This document shows, piece by piece, positions 20,980 through 48,650 of a DNA stretch of 64,000 nucleotides (position 1 is the first letter of the stretch; each line of letters opens with the position of its first letter). Source of the DNA: Alphaproteobacteria bacterium (GTDB lineage: Bacteria; Pseudomonadota; Alphaproteobacteria; CAAGCB01; CAG-977); NCBI GenBank assembly GCA_900768465.1, contig CAAGCY010000014.1, forward strand, positions 83 through 64,082, given 5' to 3'. The notes below the pieces were generated by a model. The model ran no database searches and was not told where the DNA came from. It worked only from the letters and a program-made list of their open reading frames with translations. Position numbers and translations under genes: made by a program.

Positions 20980-21807
20980 CTATCCTGCAGTATTTTGTCG
21001 CATGGCATCAAATCTCTGCAAAAGCAATCTGGTTGTGATTAGGACTATTTGTATACGGAAACAGCAATCATTTTCGTCTGACAAGCCCGGATGACTTCCC
21101 TCTGGATGTAGCCTTGACATAAGAGCTTGAATAAATTGAGGTTGTTGCGATGAAGCATGCCATTCGTTTAAATAATCCAGCAAAAAAGGCGGCTCCATTT
21201 GTCCCAAAAAATCCCTTTTTTCTTTGGCACTTCTTTCAAGAGCGCAACCAAAAGAAACGGCTATGTCATTTAGAACACTCTCAAAGAAAGCTCTTAGTTG
21301 GCTATTTGACGCCGCCCAGTTTCCATTGTCATAATTTTCAAGTGCTTGTTTTAAATGACCTAATGCTGTTTGCATTTCAAATTTTTCAAGCAATAAAGAT
21401 ACTTCATCTTTTATATCACTATATGCGTTGCAAACGGTTGAGTCGGGAAAAAATCGTACAATCGAAAAGGCATCATCTTGTTCATTTTTAATTACTGAGA
21501 AGCCATCATAACATAGCCTACGCTTAAATTTTGAGATAAGCTTTTCATCAGTTCTATCAGAAATAGCATGAACTGCATCTATGACAATATCGTGCTTCAT
21601 TGCTTCAAGAGTTTCATCTTTTTGTTCAAAGACATTAGCGACAGGAAACAATCGTTGGAGAATCGCATTACCAACATCTTTTTTTGAATACGCGTTCTCT
21701 GTGTTCAACCCCAATTCAATAGCGTATCTTGTAAGGACTGATTTCGAACAGCTGTTTTCAATAATATCAAGAGCTGTTGAAACGCTTTTTTCACTAAAAG
21801 TTTCCAT
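20980..21807 (-). CDS. AT-rich moron: hypothetical protein with C-terminal HEPN/Abi_C-like Rx6H motif
   Basis: 275 aa from ATG 21805-21807 (SD GGAGGAG 6 nt upstream). C-terminal helical region ...GHLKQALENYDNGNWAASNSQLRAFFESVLNDIA...MSRLHPEGSHPG (R237..H244 in track numbering, 21091-21114). Visibly AT-rich. Confidence 0.45.
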   Translation of the reverse strand: METFSEKSVSTALDIIENSCSKSVLTRYAIELGLNTENAYSKKDVGNAILQRLFPVANVFEQKDETLEAMKHDIVIDAVHAISDRTDEKLISKFKRRLCYDGFSVIKNEQDDAFSIVRFFPDSTVCNAYSDIKDEVSLLLEKFEMQTALGHLKQALENYDNGNWAASNSQLRAFFESVLNDIAVSFGCALERSAKEKRDFLGQMEPPFLLDYLNEWHASSQQPQFIQALMSRLHPEGSHPGLSDENDCCFRIQIVLITTRLLLQRFDAMRQNTAG

Positions 21808-21822
21808 ATCAATCTCCTCCAA

Positions 21823-21876: not shown

Positions 21877-22689
21877 TCAGTTAGAGATAATCAGCTCCTT
21901 GGTATGTTTGGTTCCGTTGTTATTGATGCTGTAAGTCACGGGGACGGATTCGAGGGTGAAGTCTTTGAACAGGTCGCGGATTGGTTGGACGTCGTTTAAC
22001 GACAAGATAAACCGTCCTTTAATGCCTGTTAAACAATCGCGCAACCGCTCGAAGTCGGCGCGGGTGAACACGCCTTTGCCGTAGTCGGTTTCGTTGCCCC
22101 AATACGGCGGGTCGATGTAGAACAGCGTGCCTTTGCTGTCGTAGTGTTTGATGAACGTTTCAAAGTCTTGCCGTTCAATGGTCACGCTCGCCAGCCGTCC
22201 GCCGACAGCGCGGACGCGGTCTTCCATTTTCACGAAGTCAAACCGCGCCGGACGGTCGATGGATACGCCGAACGACTGCCCCGTCACTTTGCCGCCGAAG
22301 GCTTGGCTTTGCAGGTAAAGGAACCGCGCGGCGCGTTCGATGTCCGTCAGCGTTTCCGGCGGCGTTTTCAGCAGGCGTTCAAACTCTTGGCGACCGGCAA
22401 ACAGAAACTCCGTTTCTTTATATAGAGTGTCGGGATAGCGGCGGACAATCCGATACAGATTGACCAGTTCGCCGTTAATGTCGTTGATAACTTCGGCTTT
22501 CGGGATTTGTTTGCGCCGCAGAAAGATACCGCCCATGCCGACAAACGGTTCGGCGTAAATGGTGTGCGGGATTTGTTCGATTTTGTCGATGATCCGCTTT
22601 GACAAGCGGAACTTGCCCCCCAGATAGGGGGCAAGCGGTGCTACCCGTGCGGGGGACGCTACACGCGCGGTATCAGTTTGTTTTTTCAT
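21877..22689 (-). CDS. Dam-like (D12 class) N6-adenine DNA methyltransferase
   Basis: 270 aa; EPFVGMGGIFL (AdoMet motif) and FYIDPPYWG (DPPY catalytic motif). Confidence 0.85.
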   Translation of the reverse strand: MKKQTDTARVASPARVAPLAPYLGGKFRLSKRIIDKIEQIPHTIYAEPFVGMGGIFLRRKQIPKAEVINDINGELVNLYRIVRRYPDTLYKETEFLFAGRQEFERLLKTPPETLTDIERAARFLYLQSQAFGGKVTGQSFGVSIDRPARFDFVKMEDRVRAVGGRLASVTIERQDFETFIKHYDSKGTLFYIDPPYWGNETDYGKGVFTRADFERLRDCLTGIKGRFILSLNDVQPIRDLFKDFTLESVPVTYSINNNGTKHTKELIISN

Positions 22690-22852
22690 AAAGCTTCTCC
22701 TTTGATAAAGGAGGCTCTGGGCTTTCGTTGTTGTTGCGGTTCAAGACCGTGATGGTGTTCATCGCGCCGCATCGGGGACACTTGATTTCGACCGAAGCGG
22801 AGTTCGCTTTGAACAGTAATTTATTGCATTTCGGGCAACGTATTGACTCCAT
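22673..22852 (-). CDS. com: Com-like zinc-finger translational regulator
   Basis: 59 aa from ATG 22850-22852: MESIRCPKCNKLLFKANSASVEIKCPRCGAM closely parallels Mu Com (IRC-x-CNKLLFKA...EIRCPRC). 17-nt overlap with the methyltransferase start, as com overlaps mom in Mu. Confidence 0.8.
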   Translation of the reverse strand: MESIRCPKCNKLLFKANSASVEIKCPRCGAMNTITVLNRNNNESPEPPLSKEKLYEKTN

Positions 22853-22958
22853 TGTTGTTATTCCGTATATTCGCCCCGCTCGTCGATGAGTGCGGAGCAG
22901 TTGATCTGTGCGAGGTGCTTTCTCGCGGCTTCGGACGTGTCCGCGTCCGAGCCTCCGC

Positions 22959-23168
22959 TTATTTACATTGCAGAAAGACGACATTGTTTCTATCAACTTG
23001 CCTGATAGTTTCGGCAGTGTCGTTCTCATAATCCAAATAAACGGGTTCGTACACGTCGCAAAAGCTACCGCTTATAGACGGCGTGCAACTTGTCAACAGC
23101 ATCAGGATCGCGTAGAGTTTCCCGCGCTTTGCGAGCAGTTGACAGACTTTCGGTTTTAGATTGTTCAT
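22959..23168 (-). CDS. probable o-spanin (outer-membrane lipoprotein)
   Basis: 69 aa; lipobox LLTSC after a basic/hydrophobic leader; overlaps the i-spanin gene out of frame (23065-23168). Confidence 0.55.
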   Translation of the reverse strand: MNNLKPKVCQLLAKRGKLYAILMLLTSCTPSISGSFCDVYEPVYLDYENDTAETIRQVDRNNVVFLQCK

Positions 23169-38668: not shown

Positions 38669-38728
38669 GATGGTCTCCTTAAAAGTTCTTGCATTTCGCA
38701 ACCGATAAGGACACCATAAGGCATTCGG

Positions 38729-38763
38729 GAATCGTTCAGAATTGTGTCATTTGTCAGGGGGGA
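38729..38763 (-). promoter_or_regulatory. 35-bp repeated box (copy 1), candidate activator-dependent late promoter for the capsid/tail operon
   Basis: Minus strand TCCCCCCTGACAAATGACACAATTCTGAACGATTC. 20-mer identity 19/20 with copy 2. Downstream -10-like TATGGT at 38713-38718, 17 bp after TTCTGA. Confidence 0.45.
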
Positions 38764-38805
38764 AAGCTTTTATTCCCCTTTTTTAATTCACAGGGAATAC
38801 GGAAC

Positions 38806-39210
38806 ATGAGTGAAGCGTGGATTGCATTTACAGGTGTTATTGTTGGGTCTGCTATATCAGCAGGATTCACTTGGTTTATTGAATGGCGCAAATCAAAGAG
38901 CGAGGAACGCATCAGATTAAAACAAGAAGGGGAGGAAGCTTTCCGCCAAATTATTCAAATCTTTTTTTCAAAAGAAGATGTGTTCTTTAAATTCTTTTCG
39001 ATACAGCCTTTATTGCCGAAAACCGCCTCTCAGCATATTTTGGATGAGAATAAAAAAATATTAGATAATTTTTTCAATCGTAACCAAGACCTTCTGGCTA
39101 AAAGGATCAATATGTCCCCAAAACAGACGAACATAACATCAGATTTTGCCTTAGAAGATGTCATCATTCCCTTGTTTAAAGAATTGGTATATGACAAACA
39201 TCAACGTTAA
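38806..39210 (+). CDS. AT-rich opposite-strand moron: hypothetical membrane-anchored protein
   Basis: 134 aa from ATG 38806; N-terminal TM WIAFTGVIVGSAISAGFTWFI. It is the only plus-strand gene inside the structural region and is visibly AT-rich. Confidence 0.5.
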   Translation: MSEAWIAFTGVIVGSAISAGFTWFIEWRKSKSEERIRLKQEGEEAFRQIIQIFFSKEDVFFKFFSIQPLLPKTASQHILDENKKILDNFFNRNQDLLAKRINMSPKQTNITSDFALEDVIIPLFKELVYDKHQR

Positions 39211-45674: not shown

Positions 45675-45988
45675 TACTTGCGCCCTCCGTTCAGCAGATA
45701 TTCCTCTTGCCGCTGCAAAATGGCTTCCGTGCGCGTTAAAACGCTGTCAATGCGTTTCATTTCGCCCGTCAGCCGCTCCACTTGAATGCTGATTTTGTGA
45801 ATGTCCTCTTTGCTGGCGACGCTTTTGTAGCCCTGTTCCAAAACGTCCAGCCGCTTTTCGATTTTGTTCAGATCGTCTTTCAGCGCGTAGGTCTTCGCCG
45901 CCGTGAACTTCACCCAGCCGAAGAAAAATCCCGCCACGCCGACGATAACGCCCCAGTATTCCGTGATTAAACCGATAAAACCCGCCAT
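45674..45988 (-). CDS. membrane/coiled-coil protein (DUF2730-like)
   Basis: 104 aa from ATG 45986-45988; TM GVIVGVAGFFFGW, then a coiled coil. Confidence 0.4.
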   Translation of the reverse strand: MAGFIGLITEYWGVIVGVAGFFFGWVKFTAAKTYALKDDLNKIEKRLDVLEQGYKSVASKEDIHKISIQVERLTGEMKRIDSVLTRTEAILQRQEEYLLNGGRK

Positions 45989-46188
45989 CAGACGCGCTCC
46001 CGTTCCGACTGGCAATCAACGCACAGACGGCACCCCGGAACCGCCTGACGGCGGGCGAGAGGAATCGGCGCACCGCATTCGGCGCAAAATTTCAATGATG
46101 TGTCAACACGAACCGATTTCAGACGCTCCGTCGCTTCGGCGTTCAACGATTCCTGTTCGGCTTGCGCCATGTCCGCAAAGTCAGCCAT
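45988..46188 (-). CDS. TraR/DksA family zinc-finger protein
   Basis: 66 aa; CAECGAPIP...CRLCVDCQ four-Cys finger; SD CAGGAGGAAG. Confidence 0.7.
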   Translation of the reverse strand: MADFADMAQAEQESLNAEATERLKSVRVDTSLKFCAECGAPIPLARRQAVPGCRLCVDCQSERERV

Positions 46189-46210
46189 TCTTCCTCCTGT
46201 TCAAACAACA

Positions 46211-46240
46211 TAAAAAAAGAATGGCAGAATCTGCCATTCT
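46211..46240 (-). terminator. intrinsic terminator downstream of the GHKL moron
   Basis: Perfect 10-bp stem AGAATGGCAG-ATT-CTGCCATTCT followed by T7 on the minus strand. Confidence 0.7.
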
Positions 46241-46268
46241 TCAAAATCGTGCCATTTGTCAGGGGGGA
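46234..46268 (-). promoter_or_regulatory. 35-bp repeated box (copy 2), candidate activator-dependent late promoter for the first late operon
   Basis: Minus strand TCCCCCCTGACAAATGGCACGATTTTGAAGAATGG; same register as copy 1 (TTTTGA, 17 bp, CATTCT). Confidence 0.45.
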
Positions 46269-46276
46269 TAACAAAC

Positions 46277-48190
46277 TTATTGTTTGATTTTTCCTCTCAT
46301 AATATCAAGGAATAGTTTGTTTCGTTTTTCCGCTTCCAATGCAACTGCTCCGGAATCGATAAAATACACATGGGCGTTTATTTCATTAAAATATCTGTAA
46401 AAAATCTTATATGCGCCCTCTGTTGAAAAAAGGCACCTAAAATCACTTGTTTTTAATCTATATGCCAATTTTTCATCAATTTTTGTTATAGCATATCCCC
46501 AAATGGTGTCTATTTCATTGAAATTTTCTCTAACTATTCCTAAATTCTCTGTAATTTCCCAAATAGCTTTTGCTTTTTCAGAATCGTCCGCATAGTTCCC
46601 CTTAAATTCTACAACAACAGCATCTTTTTGATTTAAATCATCATGAGAAAAGAATAGTGTCAGGTCTGGTCTATCTTTCGGTCTAAAAACATTTTCTTTT
46701 TGGGATTTTTCACAAATTTCTTTTATTGTTTTATCGCTTGCTATATAAAAACAACTCATAAATTTATCGTCTAATATCCATAGGTTATGGCTGTACGGAA
46801 CTGATTCATCATTGTTTTTTGAAATCGTTTCTCTCATAGGCATAAAAAGCGTGTGCATATGCTTTTCAAGCTTATTTTCGTCCGCAACACAATCCTTTAA
46901 ACCTTGAATAATTTGCTGTCTAAAAGCAAAGTATTCCGCCAATTCTCGTGCAGATAAATCCGTTATTTCGGAAACAACTTTGTTATATTCAGTGTCATCT
47001 ATATCTGCTTTTTTTAATATCTCAGAAAAACGGTCTTTTGCGCTTTTTTTATCATCTTTAAAAGCTTTTTCCGCATTTTTGATGATGTCGTTTGCAGGAA
47101 CAAAGGTGTTTTCCTGTTCATTTATGTATTTACTCAGATAAGGATATTCTTCTAAACACTTTCCTACAACATCTTTTTCTGTTTGTTCTAAAACTGGATA
47201 TTTTTGAAAGATAATCGGCGTAGCTTCACCTTTTACGGAAGAACAAATTGCATCTAATGTAATCGGTGAGTTCAAATCTTCTTCTTTTGAAAAATCAAAT
47301 TCATTTCGTTCTGGATTACAATGTTTATCCAAATAAGAAGATGTTAAAAACATAAAAACTTCTTCATTTGCTGGGATGCGAACTGCAAATCCAAAATTTT
47401 TAACAGCTCTATTGTCGGCGCACAAATACCCTTTGAATTCGCCCTTAGTTGCCGGATTAAAAGAATAATACAAATCAAAATCCGCATCAAATTTTTGTGT
47501 TTTTGATACGATTTTAAACTTTTTTTCTTCAAAGTCTGGAACGGACAATGGCGATAAAACACGGATATTATCTCCCTCTTGAATTTTAATTAGAAAATTT
47601 TTTCCCTCTTTTTTCATAAAAAATAGTTTTGATAAAATTTCGGCTTTCAATACCTCAGCAACATTAGCTACATCGGCATTAGAACGTTTATCGATTTTTT
47701 TTGTGTAATAATCGTCAGTTACAGATGAAAAAGTGATTTTTGTCCCTGTCGCCAATGCACCATCTTTTTCATCTTTTTTAATATCTTCCACTTTGAAATC
47801 AGGCTTGAATACAAAAGAAAGTTTTTTATCTTTTGTAAAACTTTCAATTGATATGTTTTGAAATACTTTCAACCATGTTAAACGTCCAACCCCTTTGCAA
47901 CCGATATTTTTCTTGTATGATGATAAATATGTATCAAATGATTTTAGATTTTCTTCTGTAAAACCATCGCCATTGTCTTCAATTACAAATCCATCTATTT
48001 TTTTTACGACTTCTTTTTCTGTCGTTCCATTTTCACCCTTCAGCTGAAGTGCTGGCACAATGGAAGGGAGTAATGTAACTGTTATCTCTGTTGCATTAGC
48101 TTCCAATGAGTTGCAAACCGCTTCAATTAGCGGCTGAAGAAACTTAACAGGTTTCAAACTCTTAACAGCGGCAGACAAGTTGACTTGCAT
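46277..48190 (-). CDS. AT-rich moron: GHKL (Bergerat-fold) ATPase with C-terminal PD-(D/E)xK-like nuclease motif
   Basis: 637 aa. N-box EAVCNSLEAN, G1 IEDNGDGF, G2 GCKGVGRL in the first about 105 aa; DRPDLTLF...VVVEFKG (D509-x18-E528-x-K530) near the C-terminus. Strongly AT-rich relative to its flanks. Confidence 0.6.
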   Translation of the reverse strand: MQVNLSAAVKSLKPVKFLQPLIEAVCNSLEANATEITVTLLPSIVPALQLKGENGTTEKEVVKKIDGFVIEDNGDGFTEENLKSFDTYLSSYKKNIGCKGVGRLTWLKVFQNISIESFTKDKKLSFVFKPDFKVEDIKKDEKDGALATGTKITFSSVTDDYYTKKIDKRSNADVANVAEVLKAEILSKLFFMKKEGKNFLIKIQEGDNIRVLSPLSVPDFEEKKFKIVSKTQKFDADFDLYYSFNPATKGEFKGYLCADNRAVKNFGFAVRIPANEEVFMFLTSSYLDKHCNPERNEFDFSKEEDLNSPITLDAICSSVKGEATPIIFQKYPVLEQTEKDVVGKCLEEYPYLSKYINEQENTFVPANDIIKNAEKAFKDDKKSAKDRFSEILKKADIDDTEYNKVVSEITDLSARELAEYFAFRQQIIQGLKDCVADENKLEKHMHTLFMPMRETISKNNDESVPYSHNLWILDDKFMSCFYIASDKTIKEICEKSQKENVFRPKDRPDLTLFFSHDDLNQKDAVVVEFKGNYADDSEKAKAIWEITENLGIVRENFNEIDTIWGYAITKIDEKLAYRLKTSDFRCLFSTEGAYKIFYRYFNEINAHVYFIDSGAVALEAEKRNKLFLDIMRGKIKQ

Positions 48191-48257
48191 AGGATTGTCC
48201 TTTCCAAAGGGGAGTTTATCTTAGAAAAAAAAATCCTGTTTGTATAGCCCCAATTGC

Positions 48258-48650
48258 TTAAAACAATTCACCTTGTTCCGTAATGCTTTTGTTTCCGGCG
48301 GTTTCGCCAGATTTGTGGCGGCGGACAGTGCGTATCGTAACGCCCGCCAGACGGGCGGCTTTGGCGGCGGAATGACCGTCTTTGATGGCTTGGCGGATAA
48401 TTCGCCAGACACGCCCACGGTTGCCGCCGAACGGGCCCAAAGGAATCTCGATTTCGTTGCCGCCGAACTGTTTGGCGATTTTAACGGCATCGTCCATGCC
48501 GATGGCAGCGCACAGCCAATGTTCGGGCTTCAAGTTGCGCGGCTGGGGGATATAAGCGACCGAACCGCCTTTGACCGCCGCGATTTTCACGGCGGCGGCA
48601 AAGCCCGCGATTTCCTCAAATTCCCCCAGAACTCCGGTCAACTGCGCCAT
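48258..48650 (-). CDS. mor: Mor family transcriptional activator
   Basis: 130 aa; C-terminal HTH ...AAKAARLAGVTIRTVRRH; follows gemA as in Mu. Confidence 0.75.
   Translation of the reverse strand: MAQLTGVLGEFEEIAGFAAAVKIAAVKGGSVAYIPQPRNLKPEHWLCAAIGMDDAVKIAKQFGGNEIEIPLGPFGGNRGRVWRIIRQAIKDGHSAAKAARLAGVTIRTVRRHKSGETAGNKSITEQGELF

Follow-up and report, generated by a model that had tools for sequence, protein, structure and literature searches.

Putative anti-phage cargo of a Mu-like prophage: a divergent GHKL ATPase-nuclease related to VcSduA and paraMORC3

What is a lone AT-rich gene doing between the middle regulator and the late genes of a Mu-like prophage? We asked this of a 64,000-nucleotide stretch of an Alphaproteobacteria bacterium genome (assembly GCA_900768465.1, contig CAAGCY010000014.1, positions 83 to 64,082; hereafter, the window), in which an open reading frame (ORF) at positions 46277 to 48190 of the minus strand, opening with ATG, encodes a single polypeptide of 637 amino acids (aa). 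A preliminary description of the sequence had suggested that the protein fuses a GHKL ATPase to a PD-(D/E)xK-like nuclease and that it is a candidate for defense cargo borne by the prophage. Our results uphold the fusion and lead us to conclude, with good though not full confidence, that this gene is an AT-rich moron whose product belongs to the VcSduA/paraMORC3/type I-D (GHKL) Shedu family and serves as a standalone anti-phage nuclease. The proposal of defense cargo gains support from homology to VcSduA, a validated defense protein, and it is by that homology that the window copy itself would be expected to act in defense.

Domain architecture and conserved residues

Homologs of the window protein are numerous but poorly named. 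Our search returned 139 proteins, nearly all of them full length (590 to 670 aa) and labeled, at most, "ATP-binding protein." In a family alignment of 91 homologs with a mean column identity of 30%, residues E23, N27, D72, G74, G100, G102, and R103 are invariant in the GHKL part, as are E442, H446, D474, D509, E528, and K530 in the C-terminal part. Because these residues do not vary across the family, D-x18-E-x-K is a conserved active site rather than a chance pattern. The preliminary description had assigned the motif residues to exactly the right coordinates: N27 at 48110 to 48112, D72 at 47975 to 47977, and G97 to G102 within GCKGVGR near the N terminus, followed by D509 at 46664 to 46666, E528 at 46607 to 46609, and K530 at 46601 to 46603. 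All features of the window given here lie on the minus strand unless stated otherwise.

Multiple lines of evidence identify the N-terminal part of the protein (residues 1 to about 165; 47696 to 48190) as a Bergerat-fold GHKL ATPase domain, including Pfam, profile comparisons, Foldseek, and conservation within the family. The domain contains motif I (E23xxxN27), motif II (D72xGxG76), motif III (G97xxG100xG102-R103), and motif IV (T150), and the residues E23/N27, D72/G74/G76, G97/G100/G102, and T150 are either invariant or at least 90% conserved. Pfam HATPase_c_3 matches residues 21 to 143 (E = 3.9e-8; 33.9 bits against a gathering score of 25 bits) and recognizes 73 of 74 family members. Structure prediction followed by a Foldseek search, a check that the preliminary description had proposed, points the same way. 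An AlphaFold2 model built from the family alignment reached a pLDDT of 88.5 and matched the ATPase modules of Hsp90, GyrB-43K, ParE, and MORC4 (E from 1e-9 to 5e-11; probability 1.0), with alignments of about 400 columns that reach past the GHKL domain (query coordinates are not part of the tool output).

Other searches were less informative. When the family profile was compared with PDB sequences, only the N termini of MutL and PMS2 were matched, along with a weak second stretch in which profile positions 184 to 270 align to the MutL transducer. A PDB sequence search with the window protein returned nothing significant, an NCBIfam scan gave a weak sacsin ATP-binding match, and PHROG 6203, a group of unknown function, matched the N terminus alone. 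Among viral structures, Foldseek recovered generic GHKL proteins only (rIIA, topoisomerase subunits, and Hsp90). A role like that of rIIA was considered and rejected, as rIIA is without a nuclease domain.

The roughly 400 aa between the two motif regions, which had previously been said to match nothing, correspond to an S5-type transducer and a long helical arm, as in GyrB, MutL, MORC, and Hsp90. Specifically, the model shows a predicted architecture of GHKL ATPase, S5-type transducer, helical arm, and PD-(D/E)xK domain. The transducer, or middle domain, spans residues 170 to 300 (47291 to 47683; boundaries approximate), is beta-rich in the model with a pLDDT above 90, and carries the invariant residues R261 and R295. 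The arm (approximately residues 305 to 436; 46883 to 47278) consists of five long helices, assigned by DSSP to residues 312 to 330, 332 to 348, 350 to 358, 366 to 393, and 399 to 436 at a pLDDT of about 85 to 95. The arm had no independent family match; by analogy with the dimer model of VcSduA (PMC12137116), it may serve as a clamp or linker between the ATPase module and the nuclease.

The remainder of the protein (residues 437 to 637; 46280 to 46882) is predicted to be a PD-(D/E)xK nuclease domain of a divergent Shedu (DUF4263-like) type, based on the model, conservation, and hhalign. Its motifs are E442/H446, N469xW471, D474-D475, P508-D509, and E528xK530. When modeled alone, these residues form an alpha/beta domain (pLDDT 88; pTM 0.85) with an alpha-beta-beta-beta-alpha-beta core. 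Together with the invariant residues and the profile matches of the C terminus, this domain model bears out the earlier suggestion of a fused nuclease.

Kinship with VcSduA and the Shedu nucleases

Proteins with this general organization have been described before. ParaMORC3 proteins combine a GHKL+S5 module with an extra C-terminal domain of the restriction endonuclease (RE) fold that bears E-D-ExK motifs, and they occur as sporadic, laterally mobile genes in Proteobacteria and Bacteroidetes, some in restriction-modification (R-M) operons and some standing alone (Iyer, Abhiman, and Aravind 2008, PMC2292703). More recently, a preprint assigned GHKL-fused nucleases to type I-D Shedu (Gu et al. 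2023), and VcSduA-like proteins are among those that had been annotated as paraMORC3 (Adams et al. 2025, PMC12137116). The preliminary description had drawn the link to paraMORC proteins correctly, but it treated the one-polypeptide form as an unexplored variant when that form is the paraMORC3 of the paper that it cited (PMC2292703), now type I-D Shedu. VcSduA, which comes from pandemic Vibrio cholerae, confers resistance to Drexlerviridae in Escherichia coli and to phage X29 in V. cholerae. Its protection against Bas01 is greater than 10,000-fold and is abolished by either E27A or K557A. Furthermore, VcSduA is active alone when moved into E. coli, and it protects at all multiplicities of infection (MOIs) tested, which its authors read as direct restriction with no sign of abortive infection (PMC12137116).

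Our comparisons relied on the VcSduA sequence (673 aa) and the authors' 543-row match table, both from the supplement of the Adams preprint (10.1101/2024.11.23.624991). They cover residues 1 to 399 of VcSduA; the C terminus was compared through a relative from Vibrio fluvialis. Against the hidden Markov model (HMM) of the window family, residues 1 to 399 scored 221 bits (E = 1.4e-63) over profile positions 2 to 366 in one stretch, and the window protein is 25% identical to VcSduA (BLASTP E = 7e-21). The V. fluvialis relative is an "ATP-binding protein" of 672 aa on an IncC plasmid (locus L091, 7995 to 10013) that is 62.5% identical to VcSduA. BLASTP aligns 99% of its length with the window protein (E = 1e-35), and the two have the motifs NLWLxD, PDL, and VVE(F/I)K in common. 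We rejected the idea that it is VcSduA itself on the grounds of that identity and of its numbering, as its key residues are E27 and E554xK556 rather than K557. The invariant E23 and K530 of the window protein correspond to E27 and K557 of VcSduA and to E27 and K556 of the Vibrio clade. In addition, several proteins of the match table are recognized by the window family HMM (E = 1e-17 to 1e-50), among them those of P. gingivalis W83, Ca. Campylobacter infans, Aliarcobacter cibarius, and N. weaveri.

Profile comparisons extended this relationship through the C terminus. With hhalign, the C terminus of the Vibrio/VcSduA clade aligned to that of the window family at 100% (E = 1.1e-45; 189 columns) and to a DUF4263 profile, built from confirmed Shedu proteins and comprising 117 sequences, at 91.6% (E = 8e-7). 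The C terminus of the window family aligned to DUF4263 at 62.5% (E = 7e-5), with the catalytic Asp and the ExK in register, while reversed-sequence controls reached about 0.3% (E of about 0.2). The nuclease of the window sub-clade thus lies further from DUF4263 (62%) than does that of the Vibrio clade (92%), and its relationship to the Shedu domain appears remote and transitive. Because the comparisons with VcSduA, with the V. fluvialis protein, and between C-terminal profiles all match, we take the window protein to be a divergent member of the VcSduA/paraMORC3 family.

Similarities to VcSduA (A1552VC_00276, AWB73059.1; WASA lineage) go beyond sequence. Both proteins are single polypeptides, of 673 and 637 aa, whose GHKL, transducer, helical, and PD-(D/E)xK parts are arranged alike, and both are encoded by standalone genes on mobile elements, the VSP-II island for VcSduA and the Mu-like prophage for the window gene. 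The window protein nevertheless differs in being only about 25% identical and some 36 aa shorter. Compared with the 2008 description of paraMORC3, rather than with a sequence set, the window family fits in its GHKL+S5 module, its C-terminal RE-fold domain with E-D-ExK, its sporadic spread, and its mix of R-M-linked and standalone genes. The spread described in 2008 was narrower, however, as the window family is also found in Bacillota, Elusimicrobiota, Verrucomicrobiota, and Gastranaerophilales.

Relationships to better-known proteins are more partial. Canonical Shedu SduA (B. cereus 8TI8/8TI9 and E. coli 8PS4; SduA_C, PF14082) is a single-gene nuclease defense that has the D...ExK core and an upstream N-x-(W/F)-(I/L)-L in register with the window family over about 150 columns. 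Yet its N terminus is a PF21407-type domain, entirely different from the GHKL ATPase of the window protein, and it is a tetramer, whereas the window protein is probably a dimer if the modeling of VcSduA is a guide (PMC12137116). MutL, GyrB-43K, MORC, and Hsp90 have the same Bergerat ATPase and transducer fold, and MutL likewise couples a GHKL module to an endonuclease. In contrast to these proteins, the window protein is without the MutL C-terminal dimerization/endonuclease domain, a Toprim domain, and MORC-specific elements, and its nuclease is of the PD-(D/E)xK fold. The GHKL-nuclease architecture is already known and phage defense by such a fusion is established biology; the window copy is a new, divergent, phage-carried member.

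An AT-rich gene in a Mu-like prophage

The composition of the gene sets it apart from its surroundings. Its GC content is 32% overall and 0.30 to 0.35 in 500-bp windows, compared to 0.53 to 0.58 (about 55%) on either flank, and its GC3 is 0.245, compared to 0.69 for the nearby terminase gene. The preliminary description had put the roughly 2-kb block around the ORF at about one-third GC, in agreement with these values. The contrast that it drew with a phage and host of about 57% GC also stood, although that figure was slightly high given that the window has 52.8% GC overall and its host-like parts 53.8%. Counts of DUS/USS uptake sequences offered no hint of the host.

The position of the gene between mor and the late genes of the phage, as well as its strong terminator, had likewise been described accurately. 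The neighbors are those of a Mu-like prophage: Pfam matches place GemA and Mor upstream and TraR/DksA, DUF2730, Mu gp27, and terminase downstream; MuA and MuB transposition genes lie further upstream in a 99%-identical metagenomic copy of the prophage. The middle regulator mor is directly upstream of the gene (48258 to 48650; Pfam Mor, 27.1 bits, above the gathering score of 24.9), and the ribosome binding site AAAGGA is found at 48198 to 48203. On the 3' side, a terminator scan identified an intrinsic terminator of 12 pairs at 46207 to 46242, GAAGAATGGCAG-ATT-CTGCCATTCTT and a T run, in which the 12-bp stem occupies 46242 to 46216 and the T run follows. This terminator is conserved in three prophage copies (L001, L106, and L105, the last of these being the 75% copy). 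The first gene beyond it encodes a TraR/DksA-type zinc finger (45988 to 46188; Pfam zf-dskA_traR, E = 7.8e-14).

The distribution of the gene among related prophages is restricted. The same slot between mor and traR is occupied in prophage copies at 99%, 94%, and 75% identity, and the cargo gene has a GC content of 0.31 to 0.32 in each. It was not found in 11 more distant Mu-like viral contigs (L094 to L104), and a megablast of the 9-kb region against phage genomes gave no match. With an atypical composition, a terminator of its own, and absence from related phages, the gene is an AT-rich phage cargo gene (moron) of one Mu-like prophage lineage. As a separate observation, the L106 copy of the cargo gene is 92.4% identical to that of the window at the nucleotide level, less than its flanks (mor, 97.5%; traR, 98.5%), which could reflect faster evolution or allele exchange of a defense gene.

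Elsewhere, the prophage carries a gene for a D12-class N6-adenine DNA methyltransferase (21877 to 22689; Pfam MethyltransfD12, E = 3.1e-29; PADLOC MTase_II, E = 3.6e-58). It is located at the other prophage end, in the "mom" position after the com zinc-ribbon gene (22673 to 23029; Pfam Zn_ribbon_Com, E = 6e-10). Directly downstream of the methyltransferase, at the boundary between prophage and host, is an AT-rich ORF of 280 aa (20980 to 21822; GC 0.37) with no Pfam, PADLOC, or PDB match, which could be another moron or an unrecognized restriction or defense gene. A second AT-rich ORF, of 173 aa (38689 to 39210, plus strand; GC 0.37), runs on the opposite strand within the late-gene block. It has no Pfam match and a faint match to PADLOC PDC-S67 (E = 0.007); the gene called in the equivalent place of L001 is on the opposite strand and encodes 150 aa.

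A probable role in defense and its alternatives

Relatives of the window gene are widespread. A family profile search among 1.84 billion cluster representatives returned 1,678 of them at E <= 1e-30 and 4,507 at the looser cutoff of E <= 1e-3, with clusters counted at 50% identity, and a motif scan located the family in at least 439 species genomes from many phyla, with no member more than 40% identical to the window protein. The contexts of these relatives are defense islands and mobile elements. For example, one homolog has a SIR2 protein on one side and a type I R-M system on the other, an Acinetobacter homolog adjoins CBASS, a homolog on a Ti plasmid is near PIN and TIR genes, and others adjoin serine recombinases and a Z1/Dcm system. 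On the V. fluvialis plasmid, the VcSduA-type gene lies downstream of hsdR-AAA-hsdM-hsdS and a canonical Shedu gene (L091, 6619 to 10013), so that two Shedu-type nucleases are found in one operon-like array. The homolog of Neisseria yangbaofengii is a lone insertion between pheS and pheT (L005, 8001 to 9869), a spacer that we take to be a known site of R-M insertion in Neisseria. Finally, Riemerella phage vB_RanS_PJN03 (ON245412.1; L010, 2485 to 4509) encodes a homolog of 674 aa beside its integrase. The label of that homolog, "N-acetylmuramoyl-L-alanine amidase," is probably a misannotation, because Pfam finds no amidase domain in it.

A few details of these neighborhoods are recorded as side observations. 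The canonical Shedu gene of V. fluvialis (SduA_C, E = 1.3e-25) overlaps the start of the VcSduA-type gene by 4 bp. In Acinetobacter, the gene for a DUF3800 protein lies downstream of the homolog and overlaps it (L092, 7956 to 9137). At two other loci, the homolog is followed, after a 2-bp gap, by a gene for a protein of 620 aa that consists of DUF4379 treble-clef zinc-finger repeats (L002/L003, 9908 to 11770).

If the gene encodes an anti-phage nuclease of the VcSduA type, a mechanism can be outlined. By comparison with VcSduA, MutL, GyrB, and MORC, ATP binding would dimerize the N-terminal domains into a clamp, with the transducer and helical arms forming a cavity that could engage DNA. ATP turnover would then allow the two nuclease domains, now paired, to cleave the DNA of an invading phage. 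As abortive infection is not how VcSduA works, a lysogen would in this way be protected from superinfecting phages without cell death. The gene may form a separate transcription unit, since a conserved terminator follows it and a weak promoter-like element, also conserved, precedes it; in that case it could be expressed while the prophage is repressed.

Yet, an argument can be made against this interpretation on several grounds. A PADLOC v2 scan of the window protein, another check that the preliminary description had proposed, returned no match. Likewise, Pfam SduA_C matches none of the 74 family members, and PADLOC SduA matches one (E = 0.0034). When the isolated nuclease domain was searched with Foldseek, there was no PDB match at E <= 1e-3 and no Shedu structure in the top 50. 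The weak neighbors (best E of about 0.03; TM of about 0.3) are mostly PD-(D/E)xK enzymes, including the arenavirus endonuclease, Can2, BamHI, and NucS, and because these matches are not significant, structure was not used to assign the nuclease to a subfamily. With identity to VcSduA at just 25% or so, the function of the window sub-clade is argued by analogy, as is the dimeric clamp, which is taken from published models and other GHKL proteins. The linkage of many relatives to methyltransferases hints that self/nonself discrimination, and with it the mode of action, may differ between clades. In terms of expression, no sigma-70-type promoter upstream of the gene reaches the scan threshold of 9 of 12, and for this reason the gene might be transcribed solely with mor during lytic growth. 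The 67-bp spacer between mor and the gene does contain a putative weak promoter, TATACA-17 bp-TAAGAT (48218 to 48246); the spacer sequence is different in L105, yet both hexamers and the 17-bp spacing are retained there. This element scores 8 of 12, under the threshold, and expression in the lysogen is no more than plausible.

Could the protein instead be the restriction half of a split R-M system? Under this alternative, the GHKL-nuclease would cut DNA that is without a specific N6-adenine methylation, while the com-controlled D12 methyltransferase of the prophage, or a host methylase, would provide protection. Clustering of neighbors at 80 loci offers some support. At about 10 Campylobacterota loci (L040, L044, L046, L061, L064 to L068, and L078), the gene directly downstream of the homolog (gene +1), on the same strand and some 20 to 40 bp away, encodes a D12 N6-adenine methyltransferase, and the pair looks like a two-gene R-M-style module. 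In Helicobacter, a homolog and a RhuM-family gene are embedded in a type III mod-X-rhuM-res operon (L050, L051, L052, L055, and L071), flanked by mod (N6_N4_Mtase) and res (ResIII helicase). Furthermore, C5 and HsdM methylases recur near homologs, methyltransferases are the commonest PADLOC matches among homolog neighbors, the window prophage encodes a D12 enzyme, and paraMORCs were placed in R-M systems from the outset (Iyer et al. 2008, PMC2292703). The tight linkages to D12 methyltransferases and type III R-M systems suggest discrimination based on methylation, and the broader family may include GHKL-driven restriction enzymes that read DNA methylation.

For the window gene, however, the evidence tends to point away from such a system. 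No cognate methyltransferase was found next to the gene, which is flanked by mor and traR; the window's only methyltransferase lies 24 kb from it, at the place that "mom" usually occupies in Mu-like phages, and had no phmmer match at E <= 1 to the Campylobacterota partner methylases. No methylase occurs within three genes in 18 of the 28 closest relatives (at least 33% identity), and where there is one, its class and position vary. The methylase counts are themselves upper bounds, as the iterative N6_N4 search drifted onto saccharopine dehydrogenases. Moreover, VcSduA works alone in E. coli (PMC12137116). A functional link between the D12 methyltransferase and the nuclease is speculative, and we think it unlikely that the two make up a split, phage-borne R-M system. 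If they did, such a system would exclude competitors while marking the phage's own DNA.

A role in the lytic program of the phage, whether in DNA processing, in excluding competitors during lytic growth, or in countering host systems, seems more doubtful again. The gene would then be transcribed within the middle (mor) operon, consistent with its position 67 bp downstream of mor, in the same orientation and with no promoter above the scan threshold, and the terminator that follows it could be that of the middle operon. Other GHKL proteins, rIIA and topoisomerase subunits among them, are indeed found in phages. Nevertheless, the gene is missing from related Mu-like phages and is foreign in composition, and family members are for the most part found on chromosomes or plasmids, within defense or R-M islands. 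A free nuclease would also be expected to be dangerous for a phage whose replication depends on transposing into the DNA of its host.

Least probable by our estimate is an abortive-infection or addiction toxin, a triggered nuclease that degrades host DNA indiscriminately and kills the infected cell: abortive infection has been proposed for some Shedu variants such as PD-T4-8 (Gu et al., preprint), and the nuclease domain has no evident sequence-specificity module, but the protection by VcSduA at all MOIs tested was interpreted as direct restriction (PMC12137116), and no antitoxin-like partner is conserved beside the window gene or its closest relatives.

The interpretation of the gene as a standalone anti-phage nuclease has implications for how this family is recognized and studied. 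With the window gene, the GHKL-Shedu/paraMORC3 family, which has had one validated member so far, gains an example that is carried by a phage, namely a Mu-like transposable prophage. Our analysis also points to a gap in annotation. At least 1,678 clusters at 50% identity are named just "ATP-binding protein" and are missed by Pfam SduA_C and PADLOC-DB v2.0.0, and because these resources miss members, surveys of defense islands undercount the family. More generally, the coexistence of standalone and methyltransferase-linked copies makes the family a good system for understanding what keeps self-DNA safe and how a nuclease comes under the control of a GHKL clamp.

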